DNA of 64,000 nt from positions 64,001 to 128,000 of the forward strand of contig JABCTZ010000006.1 of NCBI GenBank assembly GCA_018238155.1, read 5' to 3'. Source of the stretch: Candidatus Heimdallarchaeota archaeon. Its GTDB lineage: Archaea > Asgardarchaeota > Heimdallarchaeia > JABLTI01. Made by a program: the position numbers and the translations under genes. Positions 5,830-17,206 of this stretch are shown here, piece after piece (position 1 is the stretch's first letter; each line of letters opens with the position of its first letter). A model generated the notes under the pieces. That model worked only from the letters and a program-made list of their open reading frames with translations, was not told the origin of the DNA and made no database searches.

Positions 5830-6233
5830 CTACTGCTTCAAAACAAAACAAGTCAAAAGACGAAAACTCGGGATGGAACGCAAGAGAAATAAAAACTTGC
5901 AGACCATTTGCTTATTGGAGCAAAAGTTTAAAAACAAAAAACTTCACCGACAGAGATTAGTTTCTTCATGAAACTGCTCGCACCGTATATGAAGGCGACA
6001 ATCCGACTAGGAGCATACCGCTCTAGAATGACAGGTTGCAAAAATCCAAGCGAGCAAACAATGAAAAAAGAAACGAAAAATCTCAAAAAAATAAATAATA
6101 TTAAATAACAATAAATAACATCAAAAAATAATAATCATTATGTTTACTATGAGATCCCGAAATAAAACGGTTCGGGGTTGATGAAAACCAACTCGCGCTA
6201 TTATATATTACCCCCAATAGAATAAAAGCAAAA

Positions 6234-6283
6234 TTGCATGGTTAAAAGACATGTAAAGGTTGTACAAACTAATAATTCCTACT
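6234..6283 (+). other. 5' strand of the 16S pre-rRNA processing stem (BHB)
   Basis: GTTAAAAGA-CATG-TAA-AGGTTGTACAAAC (6241-6269) pairs with GTTTGTATAACCT-CATG-AAA-TCTTTTAAC (7980-8008): 4-bp helix with two 3-nt bulges; CCTACT 6278-6283 pairs with AGTAGG 7973-7978. Confidence 0.9.
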
Positions 6284-6403: not shown

Positions 6404-7894
<1,491 letters not shown>

Positions 7895-8060
7895 CTGAAA
7901 TCGATTGGTCCTCAGGACCGATCTTTAGTCAATGGAGGGGAAATTAAAACCCCTTTCCAAGTTTGACTTAATAGTAGGCGTTTGTATAACCTCATGAAAT
8001 CTTTTAACTGCAGAAATAATGGGTAGAAAAAAAGCGAGTTGTGTTAGTTAGGTTGTTTTT
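7895..8060 (+). repeat. native 16S 3' trailer (repeat copy 1): two hairpins, BHB 3' strand, GCGAGTT..GTTAGGTT, T-rich tail
   Basis: Complementary to leader 6241-6283 and to CAACTCGC 6189-6196. Confidence 0.85.
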
Positions 8061-8072
8061 TTATTATTTTTT
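8051..8072 (+). terminator. T-rich terminator of the 16S transcript
   Basis: GGTTGTTTTTTTATTATTTTTT directly after the processing stem. Confidence 0.5.
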
Positions 8073-8231
8073 GATTATGAAATAAGTGTTTAAGCGTCAT
8101 TTTTCTTGTATAGTTTTCTTCTCTGTAGAACCTTTACTTTTTTTCTTAGAAAATTTGACTATTAGAGCAACAATAGCTATTTCTAGAATAACCGGGATTC
8201 CATACAGAACAAAATAGAAAATAAATGGGCG

Positions 8232-9818
8232 TTACTGTTGTTTTTTTCGAACTATGAATATGATGATAGGTATGGCAATAATTGGTATGATAACTAAAAA
8301 GGCGAAATAGCCATAATTACATTTGGTAGGTTCAACAAAAATCGCAATAAAAGCATCAGTATGATCATCAAAGAAATTACGATAAGCATTCTGCGTAGTA
8401 GGGAAATCACTTGAAAAAGTTTCACCCATTACATAGCAGCTCCCATCACTTGCAACTACAACACTGTTAGCGCGATCAGTAGAATCCCCTCCTAGGTAAG
8501 TACTCCAGAGAAGTGAACCTGATGGAGAGAACTTTGTAATAAAAGCATCATAAATACCTCCTATAGTACTATTAGAAACCCCCTGTACTGGGAAATCACT
8601 CGAGGAAGTCTCACCAACGACATAACAGCTGCCCTCACTGGAGACCGCAATATCGTAACCGCGATCCCCGTTATACCCTCCTAAGAACGTACTCCAGAGT
8701 AAGGATCCATCCTTTGCCAGTTTGACCACGAAAGCATCTCCATACCCGCCGTAGGTGTGATTATGAGCATTGTACATGGGAAAATCAGGTGACCCTGTGA
8801 ATCCAGTAATATAGCAGCTGTCATCCCCTGCTACAGCAATACCAAGAGATTCATCCCAATAACTCCCACCAAAGAAGGTACTCCAGAGTAAAGAACCATT
8901 GGAAGAGAATTTGGTTATAAAAGCATCCCAATCACCAGCATAAGTGTCGTTAATTGCATTTTGTGTGGGAAAATCAATAGAAGAAGTAAATCCTGTGATA
9001 TAACAGCTGTCATCACTTGCTACTGCAACACCATACCCCCATTCTCCACCATACTCCCCGCCCAAATAAGTACTCCAGAGGAGAGCGCCATCAGGGTCGA
9101 ATTTGGATACAAAGACATCATAACCGCCATTAAAAGTGCTATCGAATGCCTTTTCAGTGGGAAAGTTCGTGGAGGACGTCAATCCAGTAACGTAGCAACT
9201 ACCATCACTTGTTGTTGCAACACTACACCCCATATCCCAGTTATTTCCTCCTAGGTAGGTACTCCATAACAGCGTACCATTCGTAGCAAATTTACTAAGA
9301 AAGGCATCGGTAGCAACATCAATCCCACTTCCATAGGTAGCATTGTAAGCATTCTTTGTAGGAAAGTTTGAAGACCAGGTTGTCCCCGTGACGTAGCAGC
9401 TGCCATCACTCGCCACAGCTATATCATAACCATAATCTAAATCACTCCCACCAAGATAGGTACTCCAGCATAGAGTGCCATTTGCAACAAATTTGGACAC
9501 AAAAGCATCTCTACCACTATATGTATAATTGAATGCATGAAGCGTTGGGAAATCTCCTGAGGAGGTTCTTCCTGTGAGATAATAGCTGCCATCCCCTGCC
9601 ACAGCAATGCCTAAGCCAATTTCTGTTCCACCCATGCCACCAAAAAAAGTACAATACTCAAGAGTAGGCATAGCAGTCTTCTGGACTCCAAATTGAGTCT
9701 GAGGAAGTATTTGTCCACTGCCAAAATTCAGAGGAAAGGGGGAACAAAGTATTAGAATTACAAAAAGAACGCCACAAGTCCCTCTCTTGCTTCGATTGGA
9801 AAATATCGTTTGACCCAT
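8232..9818 (-). CDS. SBBP-repeat beta-propeller surface protein
   Basis: Seven repeats of WSTYLGG..D.G..IAV.SDGSCYVTG.T.S.DFP..DAF; signal peptide; C-terminal TM plus basic tail. Confidence 0.9.
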   Translation of the reverse strand: MGQTIFSNRSKRGTCGVLFVILILCSPFPLNFGSGQILPQTQFGVQKTAMPTLEYCTFFGGMGGTEIGLGIAVAGDGSYYLTGRTSSGDFPTLHAFNYTYSGRDAFVSKFVANGTLCWSTYLGGSDLDYGYDIAVASDGSCYVTGTTWSSNFPTKNAYNATYGSGIDVATDAFLSKFATNGTLLWSTYLGGNNWDMGCSVATTSDGSCYVTGLTSSTNFPTEKAFDSTFNGGYDVFVSKFDPDGALLWSTYLGGEYGGEWGYGVAVASDDSCYITGFTSSIDFPTQNAINDTYAGDWDAFITKFSSNGSLLWSTFFGGSYWDESLGIAVAGDDSCYITGFTGSPDFPMYNAHNHTYGGYGDAFVVKLAKDGSLLWSTFLGGYNGDRGYDIAVSSEGSCYVVGETSSSDFPVQGVSNSTIGGIYDAFITKFSPSGSLLWSTYLGGDSTDRANSVVVASDGSCYVMGETFSSDFPTTQNAYRNFFDDHTDAFIAIFVEPTKCNYGYFAFLVIIPIIAIPIIIFIVRKKQQ

Positions 9819-10016
9819 GATAATAACCTATTGCCTTTCTTTTAAGTATTTTATTCTTATAAGATTTATCTTGATTGAGGTTTCCTTAAATCTTTTAGTT
9901 TTGCACTTTCTTTACAATATAACCTCAAATAAAAGAAGAAACAATGAAATAAATAATGCTGTTATTTTTAAAAAAAAGATAATCCTAGCAAAGCTAGGAT
10001 TTAGTGGTAATAGTTT

Positions 10017-11015
10017 CTAGGAACCAAACCATACATAACTTGAACAGTCACTTATTTGAGCATATTGAGCATCACCAACTGGGGATTGACAGCAACTGTA
10101 AGCAATAGAGAAACCTTCGGTACCTGTAGCATCCAAATTTAATTGTGCAAAGAAGTAATGTGAAAACCTTCCTTCATAAGGTAATGGTTGGAAAAGATAA
10201 GAAAAAGCAGGTTTGTCTTCACGACTGCAGGATATAGCAAGATAAGGTGAAGCTGCAAAATCGTCCACCCAGTAACCTGAATAACATGATTCCACAACAA
10301 TACATTTACGGGGAGCCTCTAATGCATCCATATAGTCTCGAAAATCATCTGAAGAGATTGTGGTTCCATCTTCTTTAAATTTTGTATGGGAGTGTTCATT
10401 ATATGTACTTCCATGACCAAAGATATAAACAAATACGGTGTCTTGATCATGTTCGTATGCATCTATAGTATTCATTGCACTTTGAACAGCTGCAACATTT
10501 GCGCAGTCTTCGTATTTATAGAATTTCGTATATCCATGTTCTTCTTCTAGAATATCAATATAATCGTCAATATCTTGTTCCCGTCCTGCATCACTTGCCC
10601 AGAAGAAGACACCTATCTTTTCTGTTATTCCGACAAGTTCAAAATCATTTGTTCCTCCACCATAGACCGTTTCCATACCAGAATTGAAACGAGTTTTGGT
10701 TGCAGTCAAATAATAAGGTGCATTACCATTCAATGTGACACTAAATCCATAATCACCTGAACTGTCTGTTGTATCTATTCCTAGTATATTGAAATAGCAG
10801 TCAGCGAGCATTATTGTAGCACTACTTAATGGATTATCAGAACAATCTTCTACTGTTCCCTCAAAGGTTGATACACCTTGTACACTCATTATTCTCATTG
10901 TTGAAAAAAGGAGAATGATGATAGCTAAGAAACTTATTTTTTTTTCAAATATTTCATTATTAAATCTCCAATTCAAAAGTGTTGAAAGAAAATTCTTTAA
11001 CAGAGCTATTACCAA
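10017..11015 (-). CDS. secreted caspase-like (clan CD, C13/C14) peptidase with N-terminal carboxypeptidase-regulatory-like domain; start region probably frameshifted
   Basis: VFVYIFGHG (His) and IVVESCYSG (Cys) dyad; GTVED...LSSATI...TTDSSGDY. Confidence 0.75.
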   Translation of the reverse strand: MVIALLKNFLSTLLNWRFNNEIFEKKISFLAIIILLFSTMRIMSVQGVSTFEGTVEDCSDNPLSSATIMLADCYFNILGIDTTDSSGDYGFSVTLNGNAPYYLTATKTRFNSGMETVYGGGTNDFELVGITEKIGVFFWASDAGREQDIDDYIDILEEEHGYTKFYKYEDCANVAAVQSAMNTIDAYEHDQDTVFVYIFGHGSTYNEHSHTKFKEDGTTISSDDFRDYMDALEAPRKCIVVESCYSGYWVDDFAASPYLAISCSREDKPAFSYLFQPLPYEGRFSHYFFAQLNLDATGTEGFSIAYSCCQSPVGDAQYAQISDCSSYVWFGS

Positions 11016-11148
11016 TGGTGTGTAATAAAGTTACCTACATAGTATACGTTATCTTTTCTCTTTGTGAAATTTCCAGTAAGAATTCAAAAGCTTAAAGAAT
11101 TGTGAGAAAAGGAATTTTTCACTCAAATTAAAACATTGATTTACTACT

Positions 11149-11309
11149 AACCTGCGGCTGGATCACCTCCTCTGAAATCGATTGGCCCTCAAGGCTAATC
11201 TCTGGTCCATGGAGGGAAATTTAACCCCTTTACATGTTTGACCTTAATTGTAGGGTTTGTTCAACCTCATGAAATCTTTTGTCATGCAAGAAAAAATATT
11301 TTTGTGCGA
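11149..11309 (+). repeat. repeat copy 2: last 23 nt of 16S plus near-complete trailer
   Basis: 37 nt identical to 7872-7908, then a diverged trailer with intact AACCTCATGAAATCTTTT, ending at TGTGCGA. Confidence 0.95.
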
Positions 11310-11352
11310 ATCTTTATAGTTTATATCTAGCTCTTATATAATAGGTGAATAT

Positions 11353-11547
11353 ATGAATTCAATTAACTTGAAAGTAGATGAACCAATAGTTATCCTTTCT
11401 TTGGCTGATTATGAAGCTTTAATAGAATCACTTGAAATTTTAACTGAAGATTCCAAGATATTAGAAGAGATTACAAAAGCAAGAAAGGAGATTGTTACTG
11501 GTCAAGGCGTGCCTCTCAAGGAATTTCTCAAGGAATTGAAGTCATGA
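11353..11547 (+). CDS. Phd/YefM-type antitoxin
   Basis: VILSLADYEALIESLEIL pattern; AGGTGA RBS; stop overlaps the toxin ATG (ATGA). Confidence 0.8.
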   Translation: MNSINLKVDEPIVILSLADYEALIESLEILTEDSKILEEITKARKEIVTGQGVPLKEFLKELKS

Positions 11548-11801
11548 TCTATGATATAATATTGGCACCTCAACCACAAAAATTTCTTAAAAACATGAAA
11601 AATAAATGAATATTTCTTCAAATTGAAGTTGCTTTCACAAGTATATCTTTAGATCCTAAAAAAGGCAAACAATTAGTAGGTGCTCTAAAGGGATTGTGGA
11701 GTTGGCGTGTAAGTTCTTATCGAATTTTATATGAAATTCAAGAGCAGAAAGTAATTGTATATGTACTTCGTATTTCACATCGGAAAAAAGTCTATGAGTA
11801 A
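11544..11801 (+). pseudogene. relE: RelE/ParE-family toxin with in-frame TGA at 11607-11609
   Basis: Hand translation MIYDIILAPQPQKFLKNMKNK*IFLQ...GKQLVGALKGLWSWRVSSYRILYEI...VLRISHRKKVYE. Confidence 0.85.
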
Positions 11802-11828
11802 TTTTTAGTCTGAATTTTCATATCTTTG

Positions 11829-11908
11829 TGTAGGTTATTGTACTCTTTGATTATCTTTTACCATTCAAGGAGCGAAATTTTATTGTGCGAGTTAGGTTCG
11901 TTGTTTTT
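11829..11908 (+). repeat. repeat copy 3 (degenerate trailer)
   Basis: TGTAGG...ATCTTTTACCATTCAAGGAGCGAAATTTTATTGTGCGAGTTAGGTT. Confidence 0.85.
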
Positions 11909-12026
11909 AGATAAAGTTTTAACCTTTTTTTAAGAAGTTTTTACTTTGCACGTGAGTTGATTTCTTATAAGTTGAAAGGTATTATTTAATAGTTTAACTT
12001 CTATATAGTATAAAAGAGGAATTCGT

Positions 12027-12278
12027 ATGAGTAAATTTGAACGAATTGTCCGTGATCCTGAGATTTGTGGAGGACAACCAACCATAAAAGGCACTCGAGT
12101 TCTAGTTCTCGATATTCTTGATTGGGTTAAAGAAGGACTATCTTTCGATGAAATTTTGGAGAGCTTCCCCAGTATTACTCGAGAGGATATCCAAGAAATA
12201 ATTGCATATGCAAAGGATATGATTGCAGGTGAGGTTGTCATTTATGGTTCTAAGAAAAGCGAAGTTTCTATTGGATGA
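12027..12278 (+). CDS. DUF433 antitoxin (VapB45-like)
   Basis: RIVRDPEICGGQPTIKGTRV...EILESFPSITREDI. Confidence 0.9.
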   Translation: MSKFERIVRDPEICGGQPTIKGTRVLVLDILDWVKEGLSFDEILESFPSITREDIQEIIAYAKDMIAGEVVIYGSKKSEVSIG

Positions 12279-12603
12279 GAACATTCCTATAAAGCTTGAA
12301 CAATTATTCACTTCTCTTGAGTTATCTTGTGTTTCAATTCGGGATGTGAAGTGGTTTGGCATTAAAAATAGAAAATTATCTGAAAGAGTCAAAAAGAGCT
12401 CCTATATTCTAATTACTCGTGATAAAGATTTCACGTTTCTCTGGAACAAATATGAAGTCCAAGTTATTTATTTAGCTATTGACCCTCCACTTCTATCTTC
12501 TTTTCTTCAACCTCTTCAGAATTTACTTCTAAATTGGCACTATAACCTAGACAAACCTTTTCTTATAATTTTGACTAAGGATACAATTCGTTTAAGACAA
12601 TGA
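12244..12603 (+). CDS. DUF5615 / Mut7-C PIN-like toxin
   Basis: FLLDENIP...ILITRDKDF; overlaps the DUF433 gene. Confidence 0.85.
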   Translation: MVLRKAKFLLDENIPIKLEQLFTSLELSCVSIRDVKWFGIKNRKLSERVKKSSYILITRDKDFTFLWNKYEVQVIYLAIDPPLLSSFLQPLQNLLLNWHYNLDKPFLIILTKDTIRLRQ

Positions 12604-12672
12604 TTTGTATTAACACTCTGAAATCTTTTACCAAGTAAGGAGCAAAAAAAGTATTATTGTGCGAGTTCGGTT
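12603..12672 (+). repeat. repeat copy 4
   Basis: TTTGTATTAACACTCTGAAATCTTTTACCAAGTAAGGAGC...TATTGTGCGAGTTCGGTT. Confidence 0.9.
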
Positions 12673-12682
12673 AGATAATCAT

Positions 12683-13048
12683 TTAATCTTTAGGTCTTAT
12701 TCGAATTGCTTTGGTTGTAATAATAACTAATTTGCCTTGATATCTAGGTTCTTTTAAGTCTCTAAGCATAAGGCTTCTATGCAATAGTTGATTTGTTGCT
12801 TCAGGATGTGGTGATAGCACTTGCAGAATAATTGTTAATGGAGGTTTTTCTTTCGTGTTATGATATATTTCTCCGAATCTTCTATCATGTGTAATCAACG
12901 GAGTAGAATTTTCTGTTGCATAATCATATATTTCCTCATCAGTTATACTTGATTTCAAAATCTCATCAATTTCTAATACTATGAATTTATTTTTTCTCAA
13001 AATTTTCTTCGTTGATTCTGATAAGCATTCATCAACAATTACTCTCAT
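12683..13048 (-). CDS. DUF5615 PIN-like toxin
   Basis: MRVIVDECLS...TDEEI...LITHDRRFG. Confidence 0.85.
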   Translation of the reverse strand: MRVIVDECLSESTKKILRKNKFIVLEIDEILKSSITDEEIYDYATENSTPLITHDRRFGEIYHNTKEKPPLTIILQVLSPHPEATNQLLHRSLMLRDLKEPRYQGKLVIITTKAIRIRPKD

Positions 13049-13063
13049 TGCCCCTCTCCTCTC

Positions 13064-13303
13064 TTACTCTACTATTGGGATAATTTCATCTTCTGGGTGA
13101 TTAATGAGGTGAATTGAATATTCAAGTGTTGCTCGTATATCCTCTTCTGTTAATTTTGGATATTCTTTGATTATCTGCTCAAAAGACGCTCCGTCTTTTA
13201 GCATCTGTAAGATAATGTAAATTGGTATTCTAGTATTTCTAATGACAGGTTTGCCACCTAGAATCTTGGGGTTTACTTCTATACGATTTATTATTGGATT
13301 CAT
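13064..13303 (-). CDS. DUF433 antitoxin
   Basis: RIEVNPKILGGKPVIRNTRIP...EYPKLTEEDI. Confidence 0.9.
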   Translation of the reverse strand: MNPIINRIEVNPKILGGKPVIRNTRIPIYIILQMLKDGASFEQIIKEYPKLTEEDIRATLEYSIHLINHPEDEIIPIVE

Positions 13304-13374
13304 TTCTTCTCACAATTATATTTATCTGGCTGACTAATAAAGTTTTTTTGGATTTCTAACAAATTTTTCCATAA

Positions 13375-13455
13375 TAGGAATTTGTTTACACAAAACATCT
13401 TGAAATCTTTTACCAAGCAAGAAGTGAAAAATAGTTTTGTACGAGTTAGGTTGTT
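13375..13455 (+). repeat. repeat copy 5
   Basis: TAGGAATTTGTTT...TGAAATCTTTTACCAAGCAAGAAGTG...TTGTACGAGTTAGGTTGTT. Confidence 0.9.
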
Positions 13456-13592
13456 CTACTTTTATTTGACTCTAATTTTTTTGATTTAGATTTTAAAAAG
13501 AATGAAACAAGAAATAAGAATTTCAAAATATCTTAAGATAGTGGATTTTACATTAAAAAAACCGTTTTGGTAACTAATTTTCTGTATTGTTT

Positions 13593-13835
13593 TTACTGAA
13601 GCATTTCGATGAGTTTATCTTTCGAGATATTGTTCCAAATTGCTACCTTCGTTAAAATATCGTTTAGAGTTCCTTTTGCAATCTCTTTATGTGTAACAAT
13701 AGTAATATGATGTTCTCCTGCTTCCCCTTTCTTTGTTAGTCTTATATGACTTCCTTTTTGTCTTACTACCCGATAATCTAGTTTATTCAGTAGCTTTAGT
13801 AGTTTCTTTCCACTAACTACTGGAAGCTTTGGCAA
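13593..13835 (-). CDS. hicA: HicA-family mRNA interferase toxin
   Basis: PKLPVVSGKKLLKLL...RQKGSH...H...EIAKGTLNDIL; GAGGTG RBS before TTG 13835. Confidence 0.9.
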   Translation of the reverse strand: MPKLPVVSGKKLLKLLNKLDYRVVRQKGSHIRLTKKGEAGEHHITIVTHKEIAKGTLNDILTKVAIWNNISKDKLIEMLQ

Positions 13836-14049
13836 TTGCTTGCACCTCAAATTCAGACAAAGTTAAAATTCTTATCGTTTCTGTTTGCAATTCTTCCTCA
13901 AAGTGCACCTCAACGGCTTCTTCAATATTCTTTCGTAATTCATCTAAGGTTTTCCCTTGAGTAAAAATATCTGCATCCATTCCTCTTGCACACCAATTTC
14001 CCTCTTCATCTTGATATATTTCTAATTTTATTAGACGCATTAATTTCAC
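13813..14049 (-). CDS. hicB: HicB-like antitoxin
   Basis: EEGNWCA...IFTQGKTLDELRKNIEEAVEVH; overlaps hicA. Confidence 0.8.
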   Translation of the reverse strand: MKLMRLIKLEIYQDEEGNWCARGMDADIFTQGKTLDELRKNIEEAVEVHFEEELQTETIRILTLSEFEVQAIAKASSS

Positions 14050-14117
14050 CTAATTATATCTTCTTTTTCTTTAATTATAAACTCATTTATTATTGATTAT
14101 ATTTAAAACTCATTCTC

Positions 14118-14207
14118 TTTTCATGTTCGATCTAAAAGTAGGATTTGTTTAACCTCATGAAATCTTTTACCAAGCAAGGAGCGAATAAATTATTGTGCTA
14201 GTTAGGT
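14118..14207 (+). repeat. repeat copy 6 (intact BHB half-site)
   Basis: TTTCATGTTCGATCTAAAAGTAGGATTTGTTTAACCTCATGAAATCTTTTACCAAGCAAGGAGCG...TGTGCTAGTTAGGT. Confidence 0.92.
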
Positions 14208-14255
14208 CAGTTGTTATTATTTTTACTATTTTTCGTTTATCTTAATTGTAAATGG

Positions 14256-15536
14256 TCACTCAGATTTTTTCAGTTGTTTTTTTGTTCTTATCCTAATAGC
14301 AGCAATTACTTTTAGGACAATAACAATTAGAATGATAGAAATAACCGCTATTACTGATACAATTGTAATTATCATTTTAGTTTCAAAGGTTAGAGGAATT
14401 ACCATTGGAAATAATCTTTTAATTCTCTCAGGATTTGTAACATCATAGATAAAAAGGAACCAAGAATAATAAAAAGTCGTAGCAATCCAATCTTCCGTAA
14501 TTATTATACAAATGTTGTTTATCATGACTATTTTTTTATACTCTAACTTCAAACGGTCTTCCATTGAATGTTTATCGAGTTCAATAATATGTTCAAGATT
14601 TGTTTTATCTAATGTTAGTATTTCCCTTTCAGTTACTAGATAAACAATATTTTCAGATACATGAGCTGATTTTGCATTTTCTAATGTATAATTAGCTATA
14701 CAATTCAATCTATTATCATTTAGTATTTCATAAATCTTCAATCCCATATTATCGCAAGCATTTAGCTGATCATCCGACAATGAAATGCTGTTTAGATTGT
14801 CGAATTCATATTCAACTACAAAATCTAATTGAAGAGCACTATTTACTTCATAGATAGCTAAATTTTGCTCTCCGGTTATTACGAAAACTCTTTCCTCATC
14901 CATTATTACATCATTAAAGGAAAAGTTTCTCGTTGTATTACCAATTAAGTTCCAGTTGTTAAAATCTGTTAAATCATATGTGAGCATTAATTTACTTCCA
15001 TAATCGTTAGAACCAAAAATGAATAATTCATCATTGATTATAATCAATTTTAGTATTTCCAAATCTATTGTTGTAAGTATATTCACCAATGTAGCGTTTA
15101 TTTCACAATTAACTATCCCAATGAAATTATCATAGTGTCTTGCACTGAATAATATCTTATCATTGTATCTTGTTATATACCGTGCTAAACTGAGATTTGC
15201 ATTTTTTTCTTGATAGATTACTTGCGCTTTCGCTGGTCTACTTATATCGATTATCTGAAAACCTGCTGAGCTTGTTGAATAGATTAAATCTTCATATACT
15301 ACAAAATCAAAACTACAATGCATCACTGTATTGATCGTATAAAATTTGTCGATACAGACTTTCTTATTGATTGATGTATTTCCACTAATATATTGTGGAT
15401 TTTTGATGTTATTATAGTCTATGGACGTTCCAATGATAACTGTAATGATCATTGAAATTCGTACTAATTTAAAAAAATCGTTTCCTCTCATAATGCATCC
15501 CGCTTTTCCATTCTCTTGTATTTCTTTCCTTTTCAA
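14256..15536 (-). CDS. LVIVD-like beta-propeller surface protein with C-terminal TM (start probably ATG 15491)
   Basis: GFQIIDISRP, GLKIYEI, LFIYDVTNP repeats; N-terminal hydrophobic segment; TM plus basic tail. Confidence 0.65.
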   Translation of the reverse strand: MKRKEIQENGKAGCIMRGNDFFKLVRISMIITVIIGTSIDYNNIKNPQYISGNTSINKKVCIDKFYTINTVMHCSFDFVVYEDLIYSTSSAGFQIIDISRPAKAQVIYQEKNANLSLARYITRYNDKILFSARHYDNFIGIVNCEINATLVNILTTIDLEILKLIIINDELFIFGSNDYGSKLMLTYDLTDFNNWNLIGNTTRNFSFNDVIMDEERVFVITGEQNLAIYEVNSALQLDFVVEYEFDNLNSISLSDDQLNACDNMGLKIYEILNDNRLNCIANYTLENAKSAHVSENIVYLVTEREILTLDKTNLEHIIELDKHSMEDRLKLEYKKIVMINNICIIITEDWIATTFYYSWFLFIYDVTNPERIKRLFPMVIPLTFETKMIITIVSVIAVISIILIVIVLKVIAAIRIRTKKQLKKSE

Positions 15537-15562
15537 ATTGATAAAATTTTTTGTAATGAGCG

Positions 15563-15577
15563 TGTGCGAGTTAGATT
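15563..15577 (+). repeat. repeat copy 7 (tail only)
   Basis: TGTGCGAGTTAGATT followed by a T-tract. Confidence 0.7.
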
Positions 15578-15588
15578 AGTTCATTTTT

Positions 15589-16904
15589 TTATTCTTCTTT
15601 ATATTTCAATTCAGGTTTATTTTTCAGTTTTATTTTTTTAGATTTCTTCAACTTCCTCACAGAAAAGATAGACATAATTATAACAATAATCAAAATAAAT
15701 GGACTTGCAATACCCATTATTGGAAGAATTAAATAGTGAAATATGAGTGGTAATTTTATTATTGGAAATTGTAGTTTAATTCTATTCTTATTTTCTATAT
15801 CAAAGATAAAAAGATCGGTTTGTGTGTCAGGGGCACCTGTCATGTAATCCTCTGTCATAACTAAAACATAGTTTTTGTACAAGAAAATTTTCTTAAAATC
15901 TAGTTCTACTATATCCTTTAGCCTATATTTACTTCTGCATTTAATTTCATCATTTTCTACTTCTAAAAGTACTAAATTCTTTGAGTTTATGATGCAAATA
16001 ATATCATCCTTAACAGCAATTGACTTTGGTTGAGCTATATCATAACTTGCAATTTTTTCCGGATTATAAGGATCGTCATTATTGAACACTTGAATTTGGT
16101 TACTTTTTAATGCATACAGAAAGTTATCCTGAAAACTTATTCTGGTATATTCTTCTTCAAATTCTTTTACTTTTACTGGTGCACTTACATTGCTGAAATC
16201 GTAGACCAACAATTTGTTGTCAATAGTACTATGATATAGAAAATTATTATGGAATTTATAATCTAGGATATCATCATATTTATAATACGGTGGATATTGA
16301 TTCCCAATCACAATTTCTGAAATATTGTGACAACCAATTAAGATTGGATTATAGATATCACTAATATTGTATATTTCACATTGAGGGACTTCATATCTTG
16401 AACCAAACAAAAAGAGATTGTTCTTTTTTTGCTCTAAACGGTGAACAAAGCTTAAATTTGTACCAATTATTTTATTAAAGTATTGATCTTTTCATTTTCA
16501 ATAAATCCAATTACACTTTGATTAACATTATAATTTCCATCCATTGCCATGAACGTAATACTGCCATTATTGTAAAATGAGAAAATATATTCATAATCAA
16601 AATATCTTACCCATTTTAATTCTTTCCATCTTTGTAATTGGGAGATATTTCTTACAAATATTGAACTTGATGAGAAGCTAACGAGAACTAAATCATTTAC
16701 GCATGTAATATCATTGCACATCTTTAACATATGATTAATACTCAGTGGATTATTATTGAAATAATTTAAACTTTCAGTTTTAGCATTGTTTTTCTCAGTA
16801 TTCATATTTGAGTAATGATTCCGTAAATCATTCATTTGAACTAAAATTATGATTATAAAAAAAAAGGTATAAATAATCCTCTTCCTACAATTCTTTAATC
16901 CCAT
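15589..16904 (-). pseudogene. LVIVD-like paralog split by a 1-nt frameshift near 16470
   Basis: ORFs 16467-16904 and 15589-16410 join as ...NTLIK/IIGTNLSFVHRLEQKKNNLFLFGSRY, collinear with the neighbour's NATLVNILTTIDLEILKLIIINDELFIFGSNDY. Confidence 0.75.
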
Positions 16905-16965
16905 TTTTCCACTCTCTTGTATTTATTTACTCTTCAAATTAATAAAATTTCTTGTAATAAGAATA

Positions 16966-16978
16966 TGCGAGTTAGGTT
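16966..16978 (+). repeat. repeat copy 8 (tail only), distal end of the array
   Basis: TGCGAGTTAGGTT followed by a long T-tract. Confidence 0.75.
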
Positions 16979-17206
16979 TGTTTTTTTCTTTTTTTGTTTT
17001 TCGTTCGAGTTTTCCTATTATTTTCAACCCAAGAACTATACTTAATATTATTATGATAAAAATAATCCTCGATTTTTATTGTTTATTTCAATCAAAAAGA
17101 GCATGCCAAATTATTATTAAAGATAGAAAGATATTCTTCATTGGGATTTATACTAGGTTTATTATCTTAGATTTTGAATTCACAAGAAATTTCCAGGTGA
17201 AAAAGT

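Follow-up and report, generated by a model that had tools for sequence, protein, structure and literature searches.

A 3.3-kb insert bounded by copies of the 16S rRNA 3' end and trailer in a Heimdallarchaeota genome, and orphan 16S 3' ends in other Asgard archaea

The 16S rRNA gene of a Candidatus Heimdallarchaeota archaeon (genome G000, assembly size 4.08 Mb) is followed by a 3.3-kb insert that is bounded by direct repeats of the 16S tail, such that the gene is rebuilt and a second copy of its tail lies downstream. The reading that we favor, and to which we give about an even chance of being right, is that the DNA was captured by homology-driven single crossover and that gene conversion later acted among the tail copies. 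Unless another contig or locus is named, coordinates are positions in the window, i.e., the whole stretch of 64,000 nucleotides that was analyzed, which is part of a 137-kb contig (C1).

The displaced 16S tail and the pre-16S processing stem

The 16S rRNA gene (6404–7894, forward strand) is complete (Rfam RF01959, 1391 bits, model positions 1–1478), continuous and uninterrupted, and it is the single 16S copy found in the assembly. Downstream of it, positions 11149–11185 are identical to positions 7872–7908 at 37 of 37 nucleotides. The displaced copy starts with the first A of the GGAA loop in GCCGTAGG-GGAA-CCTGCGGC (helix 45) and contains GGATCACCTCC and the anti-SD, just as an earlier note on this DNA had described. 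When its first 23 bases served as a query with up to three mismatches, no third site was found beyond those at 7872 and 11149, and 100 shuffles yielded no match. The 32 bases preceding 11149 bear no relation to 16S. Past 11185, on the other side, the similarity goes on, at 87% over 76 nt and then at 75% over the next 67 nt, and the right limit of the displaced copy is reached at about 11281–11324 (11324 by profile search). The direct repeat extends over 7872–8005 and 11149–11280, and the resident 16S still matches the full model. In total, the displaced copy comprises 23 nt of 16S and about 150 nt of trailer; outside the 37-nt block, the trailers of the two copies differ at about 20% of positions.

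We refer to the resident copy as unit R1 (7872–8062, forward strand). It is attL-like and begins in the helix-45 loop with the final 23 nt of 16S, to which a hairpin of the trailer and the processing stem's 3' arm are joined, the latter with a strand of a bulge-helix-bulge (BHB) motif at 7980–8008. The displaced copy, unit R2 (11149–11324, forward strand), is attR-like and is composed of the 16S 3' end (11149–11171), the remainder of the identical block up to 11185, a trailer hairpin and a BHB strand at about 11255–11283. The proposal of the earlier note that 7872–11185 is a 3.3-kb unit with attL- and attR-like ends therefore stands as far as a repeat-bounded insert and a restored gene are concerned; the single crossover site in helix 45 that went with it does not, as detailed below.

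The 5' strand of the processing stem is provided by the 16S leader (6180–6275, forward strand), the BHB half of which, at 6241–6269, pairs with trailer positions 7980–8008 (inverted repeat I2). In this pairing, a 9-bp helix, a 3-nt bulge, a 4-bp CATG/CATG helix, a second 3-nt bulge and a 13-bp helix follow each other, by eye a canonical 3-4-3 BHB. Pairing between the leader and R1 spans about 90 nt on each side (dG −49 kcal/mol, z −5.6 versus shuffles), and the duplex of the leader with R2 has a dG of −39 and a z of −4.6. Complementarity to the leader is kept in all six full units of the repeat family described below (z −2.8 to −5.6), and CATG-AAA-TCTTTT is kept in R1, R2, and R6. The leader/trailer BHB pairing thus identifies the duplicated unit as the 3' strand of the pre-16S processing stem. 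Between R1 and R2, the stem of the first trailer hairpin differs by four substitutions, all of which (4/4) preserve pairing, one of them as a double change. As the hairpin has been kept despite these substitutions, the comparison of the two sequences weakly suggests that R1 and R2 have both evolved as working tails, as would be expected if one of them had arrived with foreign DNA.

In both tail copies (7890–7940 and 11167–11215), the trailer sequence GGAGGG is predicted to pair with the anti-SD CUCCUC, and this pairing would mask the 16S 3' end in the precursor.

Four public DNA runs (marine-sediment and cold-seep metagenomes) gave short contigs of approximately 3–13x depth, none of which bridges 11148/11149 or the predicted empty site. 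No circle, no empty site and no strain free of the insert came to light. In one contig from a low-depth run, X1, position 11244 is linked back to 7979 across 19 other letters; the contig is too weak to use and could stem from a circle, a tandem copy or another strain. A different, 451-nt contig from run X1 matches the R1-type tail (7867–7916) only from A1513 on and carries 399 other letters before that point; within the population sampled, it may represent a further orphan or an allele that bears an intron. Ends of 16S genes are classic misassembly points, and together with the unbridged 11148/11149 junction this could be taken to mean that the duplication is an assembly artefact, namely a chimera that arose in a metagenome bin by joining at the conserved 16S end. 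We regard this as extremely improbable. The same structure is present in the single-contig genomes G016, G026, G086, and G116, the trailers of R1 and R2 are about 20% different past the 37-nt block and are thus not collapsed duplicates, and a module further downstream (module C, see below) is common to the related genome G010, where it occupies the same relative place.

An array of tail units and gene modules behind the 16S gene

A profile search of the 4.08-Mb assembly with the tail unit retrieved six copies, all of them on the same strand and within positions 7958–14217, and the repeat family is confined to this locus in the genome. Two more right-half copies, at 15553–15585 and 16950–16985, were found by means of a 15-nt right-hand motif (a 13-nt core motif with two mismatches gave only noise), which makes an array of eight units spanning 7958–16985. 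The units share their right end and differ at their left end. Among the displaced units, 16S sequence is found in R2 only and is absent from R3–R8. Each interval holds one self-contained module in either orientation, and four of the modules are toxin–antitoxin pairs.

Module A lies between R1 and R2 and is made up of two genes on the reverse strand, one for an SBBP beta-propeller repeat protein of 528 aa (8232–9818; Pfam PF06739, E 3.7e-22) and one for a Peptidase_C13/CarboxypepD_reg protein of 332 aa (10017–11015; Pfam PF01650, E 5.2e-07). Paralogues of the latter are encoded elsewhere in the genome (39%–52% identity), and the genes of module A belong to a multicopy family native to the genus. 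The pair of SBBP and C13 peptidase genes occurs at least five times in G000, always as neighbors and with about 40%–57% amino acid identity; the four other contigs concerned are C17, C41, C11, and C19, the identity to their pairs being around 50%. With 42.6%, the G+C content of the SBBP gene is raised compared to that of the genome (32.8%). A foreign origin of module A, considered on this basis, was rejected because the raised G+C is a family trait shared with the paralogues elsewhere (39%–42%).

Downstream of R2, module B (11353–11801, forward strand) comprises a gene for a small Phd-like antitoxin (11353–11547; weak match, E 0.021) and a broken ParE-type toxin gene, the C-terminal piece of which lies at 11694–11801 (ParE_toxin, E 2.1e-06). 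The toxin gene is interrupted by a stop upstream of this piece (11541–11801), and the small antitoxin-like reading frame is intact. Repeat R3, a trailer arm without a 16S part (11813–11905, forward strand; nhmmer E 5.9e-14), separates module B from module C (12027–12603, forward strand), in which domain matches identify genes for a DUF433 antitoxin-like protein and a DUF5615 PIN-like toxin. After R4 (12584–12680, forward strand; E 6.8e-19) follows module D with domain matches to DUF5615 and DUF433 (12683–13303, reverse strand), and after R5 (13363–13459, forward strand; E 5.9e-17) module E with a HicA toxin (E 2.2e-13) and a HicB-like antitoxin (weak match, E 0.0016) at 13593–14049 on the reverse strand. 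Repeat R6 (14122–14217, forward strand; E 4.2e-22) has an intact BHB strand. The last two modules encode membrane-anchored proteins on the reverse strand: module F (14256–15536) is located between R6 and the right-half copy R7 (15553–15585, forward strand; motif TGTGCGAGTTAGATT at C1:79563), and module G (15589–16904) between R7 and the right-half copy R8 (16950–16985, forward strand; motif TATGCGAGTTAGGTT at C1:80964).

In the relative G010, module C is likewise located between two repeats of that genome, and its proteins share 91% and 65% amino acid identity with those of G000. The repeats of each genome follow the trailer of that very genome, with CATGAAATCTTTT in G000 and CGTGTAATTATC in G010. 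A module that is common to both genomes while the flanking repeats are genome-specific points to concerted evolution of the copies with the functional arm. Given concerted evolution, the perfect 37-nt block beside sequence of 80% identity is readable as a conversion or crossover tract. Further along the same strand, the 23S gene starts at C1:134052, 62 kb apart from the 16S gene.

Orphan 16S 3' ends and helix-45 insertions in other Asgard genomes

The 16S 3' end was searched for in 83 genomes belonging to the class and in 400 belonging to the phylum, and the flanks of all additional copies were read. Boundaries of the orphans were assigned by ungapped extension against the true 16S (by eye for the start at about 1522 in G012), a procedure that detects starts upstream of about 1522, later ones being invisible to it. 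Orphan 16S 3' ends, for which the earlier note had thought Asgard genomes worth searching, recur behind or near the 16S gene in at least eight further Asgard lineages, closed genomes included. Here, lineages were counted (eight besides G000) and not copies, because G000, G004, and G010 may have inherited their copies from a common ancestor. In Escherichia coli numbering, the orphans start at 1518 in G000, 1516 in G004, 1520 in G016, 1521 in G038, 1522 and 1513 in G070, about 1522 (by eye) and about 1427 in G012, 1524 in G116, 1503 in G127 and 1511 in G086. Accordingly, 10 of the 11 sharp starts fall within 1503–1524, that is, in the last 40 nt of the 1,500-nt gene, and the start at about 1427 is the exception. 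As the starts cluster in this way and are nevertheless variable, the hot spot is regional, comprising helix 45 rather than one nucleotide.

Downstream of each sharp orphan comes a trailer that resembles the one of the same genome or of the nearest relative, and not the trailers of other genera. What is repeated is thus the tail of the locus concerned, which is the outcome expected of a process based on homology. Trailer-only copies are common as well (R3–R8 in G000, two copies in G026), and unit 2 of G010 and a second copy in G038 look like longer, decayed orphans. In the closed genome G016 (3,081,793 bp), the repeats comprise 134 nt with 95.5% identity and enclose an insert of 6.6 kb; in G012, 14.4 kb lie between repeats of 347 nt with 97.4% identity; and in G026 (3,326,783 bp), a virus-like element of about 38 kb is bounded by 93-nt trailer repeats that are 97% identical and are located 38 and 41 kb behind the 16S gene. 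The same layout is found in G010, G127, G070, G038, G116, and G086. Behind the trailer, G016 and G026 share no synteny, so this pair provides no clean empty site. Exact-pattern scans of metagenome and genome collections for the trailer of the G000 species gave zero matches. Two further observations concern individual loci. Directly behind its 16S gene, G012 encodes a protein of 1,625 aa (L030:13389-18266) without a Pfam match, which over 694 aa is 38% identical to the product of a 1,340-aa open reading frame adjoining the orphans of G038 (L044/L073). In G086, the 16S and 23S genes are 4 kb apart, and the spacer contains an orphan 16S end and a LAGLIDADG remnant.

Mobile DNA at this site has been reported before. 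In Ca. Heimdallarchaeum, the element HeimM2, with genes for an LRR protein and a homologue of homing endonucleases, is located behind the 16S gene, and the 44-kb HeimV2 occupies the same site in a sister species; both are targets of CRISPR spacers and hence mobile (Wu et al. 2022, PMC8813620). Judging from gene content, we infer that G016 and G026 are the genomes with HeimM2 and HeimV2. The order in G016 is 16S with trailer, three unknown open reading frames and an LRR gene, the orphan 16S end with its trailer, a LAGLIDADG gene and tRNA(TCT). The repeats in G016 and G026 would then mean that the published elements are bounded by the same kind of repeat as the insert in G000. A search of the text of PMC8813620 found no mention of direct repeats or of a duplicated 16S end or trailer. 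Comparison of the HeimM2 proteins with PHROGs and the PDB yielded nothing. The situation in G000 resembles that of HeimM2 and HeimV2 in that variable DNA immediately follows the sole 16S gene of an archaeon of the Heimdall group and in that G016 and G026 have the same repeats, but differs in that the G000 window is devoid of an endonuclease gene and contains an eight-unit array of small modules. The G000 locus is thus partly anticipated by Wu et al. (2022), who reported elements at the site and not the repeats; the points within helix 45 at which the copies start, the table of these starts and their overlap with intron sites are new here.

The earlier note had attributed the insertion to a tyrosine integrase and had taken recurrence at the helix-45 loop as a sign of site specificity. 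The recurrence is real with regard to the clustering of 10 of 11 starts, whereas the start varies even within one array. A site-specific origin, in which a tyrosine integrase or a different dedicated recombinase made the crossover within the helix-45 loop, working in trans or being lost afterwards, would agree with a copy that starts in the loop of a symmetric stem-loop and with a restored gene, as at tRNA genes, with the accumulation of starts at 1516, 1518, 1520, 1521, and 1522 across lineages and with the repeat-bounded, virus-like element of G026. We nevertheless judge such an origin to be unlikely. The insert encodes no integrase, its two reading frames matching SBBP and Peptidase_C13 in Pfam, and a search with PF00589 found no tyrosine integrase beside it or anywhere on the 137-kb contig. 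Of the two PF00589 matches in G000, located on contigs C8 and C19, one is XerA-like, and an integron integrase is not among them. In or beside the equivalent inserts of 10 other genomes there is no PF00589 match either (0 of 11 genomes with G000), an integrase between the trailer copies of G026 was not found, and genome-wide searches of G016 (closed), G012, and G038 gave no match at E ≤ 0.001–0.01. If real, the absence of even a Xer-type recombinase from these three genomes would be unusual. Moreover, one and the same array may contain different starts (G070, 1513 and 1522; G012, about 1427 and 1522), R3–R8 and the repeats in G026 are free of 16S sequence, and left-arm symmetry upstream of the copies is not seen. 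Starts that vary from 1503 to 1524, and R3–R8 without any 16S sequence, mean that the locus cannot be explained by one crossover site in the helix-45 loop, and the integrase mechanism, for which no candidate is encoded in cis in the 11 genomes, is left unsupported.

The loop adenosines of helix 45, which we take to be A1518 and A1519 of E. coli, counted from the 3' end, bear on another explanation, namely that a cDNA of the pre-16S 3' end, stopped at the dimethylated adenosines, was inserted downstream. Presumably, A1519 is m6,2A, and reverse transcriptase would be expected to stop just 3' of it, i.e., at C1520, exactly where the orphan in G016 starts. Units with a common right end and differing left ends also resemble 5'-truncated retro-copies. 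However, the displaced copy in G000 includes both adenosines and that in G004 starts two bases further upstream; instead of being scattered, the copies invariably follow the 16S gene in direct order at a distance of a few kb; and modules A, D, and E are antisense and have intergenic DNA of their own. A retro-copy is therefore very unlikely. The earlier note had ranked it low as well, and we uphold this ranking for another reason, that is, the inclusion of both adenosines that should block reverse transcriptase and the antisense orientation of three modules.

Helix 45 is also a place at which true Asgard 16S genes are interrupted. Short insertions of about 30 nt each are present at A1519|C1520 in G106 (L087) and G116 (L053), insertions of 33 nt and about 166 nt follow A1513 in G044 (L050) and G086 (L051), respectively, and an insertion of about 38 nt follows U1512 in G070 (L037). 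In all five 16S genes the insertions are hairpin-forming, and they are probably mini-introns. The second orphan in G070 starts exactly at the junction of the U1512 insertion in its own 16S. LAGLIDADG genes adjoin the orphans in G016 (L033:8998-9618) and G086, and a free-standing relative is located just behind a 16S 3' end in G040. These observations, along with the proposal of a co-opted endonuclease for HeimM2 (Wu et al. 2022, PMC8813620), would fit a break-seeded process, in which an intron-type homing endonuclease cuts helix 45, a related 16S locus serves as the template from which repair copies the tail with its neighboring genes, and the broken end persists as the orphan. Contig C1, though, is free of LAGLIDADG and other homing endonuclease genes. 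Relatives of the G016 enzyme (43%–56% identity) reside in introns at about position 865 of 16S (G000 numbering) in G335, G384, G364, and G106, and others in the 23S, but none in helix 45; trailer-only units, furthermore, are left unexplained. On balance, a break-seeded process appears improbable to us as the origin of the array. The locus shares with archaeal rRNA BHB introns carrying LAGLIDADG genes that helix 45 takes short intron-like insertions in several Asgard 16S genes and that LAGLIDADG genes occur near some Asgard orphans. A BHB intron or homing-endonuclease element was rejected for the window itself, where the 16S gene is continuous, there is nothing to splice and C1 has no endonuclease gene.

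Known islands, the favored mechanism and its implications

Genomic islands and integrative elements sit at the 3' ends of tRNA and tmRNA genes, tandem accretion included, and their att sites are reportedly sublocated in stem-loops of these genes. The G000 locus is similar in that direct repeats consisting of the 3' part of a structured RNA gene bracket the insert, in that the gene is rebuilt and the other copy is found downstream, in that the boundary is in a stem-loop and in that several inserts occur in tandem. It differs in its target, 16S helix 45 plus the processing arm, in the lack of integrase genes from all inserts, in a boundary that varies by about 20 nt and is often in the trailer, and in modules as small as 0.5 kb. 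Integron cassette arrays and CALINs, archaeal integrons among them (Ghaly et al. 2022, PMC9668308), likewise feature a repeat at each module joint, common toxin–antitoxin modules and modules in either orientation. Unlike integron recombination sites, the repeats studied here do not adopt an attC-like hairpin fold (z −0.05 to +1.4 on both strands, i.e., about 0) and are genome-specific copies of a functional rRNA processing arm, and an integron integrase is not encoded in G000 (best TIGR02249 score 38 bits versus a cut-off of 265). An attC, integron or CALIN reading was rejected because the repeats do not fold and intI is absent.

According to the favored reading, capture by homology, the incoming DNA, either a module excised as a circle or DNA of a related strain, would carry its own copy of the 16S tail, and a single crossover would join it to the resident tail. 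The outcome would be a complete 16S gene with a working processing arm, followed by the module and the other tail copy, and repeated capture would build the array. The exchange would be brought about by host recombination, the insert encoding no recombinase, and later gene conversion among the copies would create the perfect 37-nt block. The left limit in helix 45 would correspond to the end of the tail segment borne by the incoming DNA, and breaks at helix 45, where Asgard 16S genes naturally accept introns, may perhaps have given rise to such segments. Homologous exchange alone leaves the frequent starts in helix 45 unexplained.

A broader proposal, rather doubtful at present, is that an Asgard-wide gene-capture platform has its recombination site in the 3' arm of the pre-16S processing stem, bounded upstream by helix 45, and that this platform operates without a dedicated recombinase, or with one linked to intron machinery, builds integron-like arrays downstream of the 16S gene and perhaps drives 16S and 23S apart. 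Structured RNA genes are classic landing sites of mobile DNA, and to our knowledge the ends of rRNA genes are absent from the usual list of such sites. In the genome studied here, the end of the only 16S gene acts as a gene-collecting site much as tRNA genes do, and the unit that is duplicated is a working piece of ribosome assembly, comprising helix 45, the anti-SD and the BHB processing arm. The locus points to capture without a resident integrase. If general, such capture would explain the hypervariable DNA behind Asgard 16S genes, the gathering of defense and toxin–antitoxin modules there and the separation of 16S from 23S, and orphan copies of GGATCACCTCC would offer a simple marker for islands of this kind in metagenome bins.
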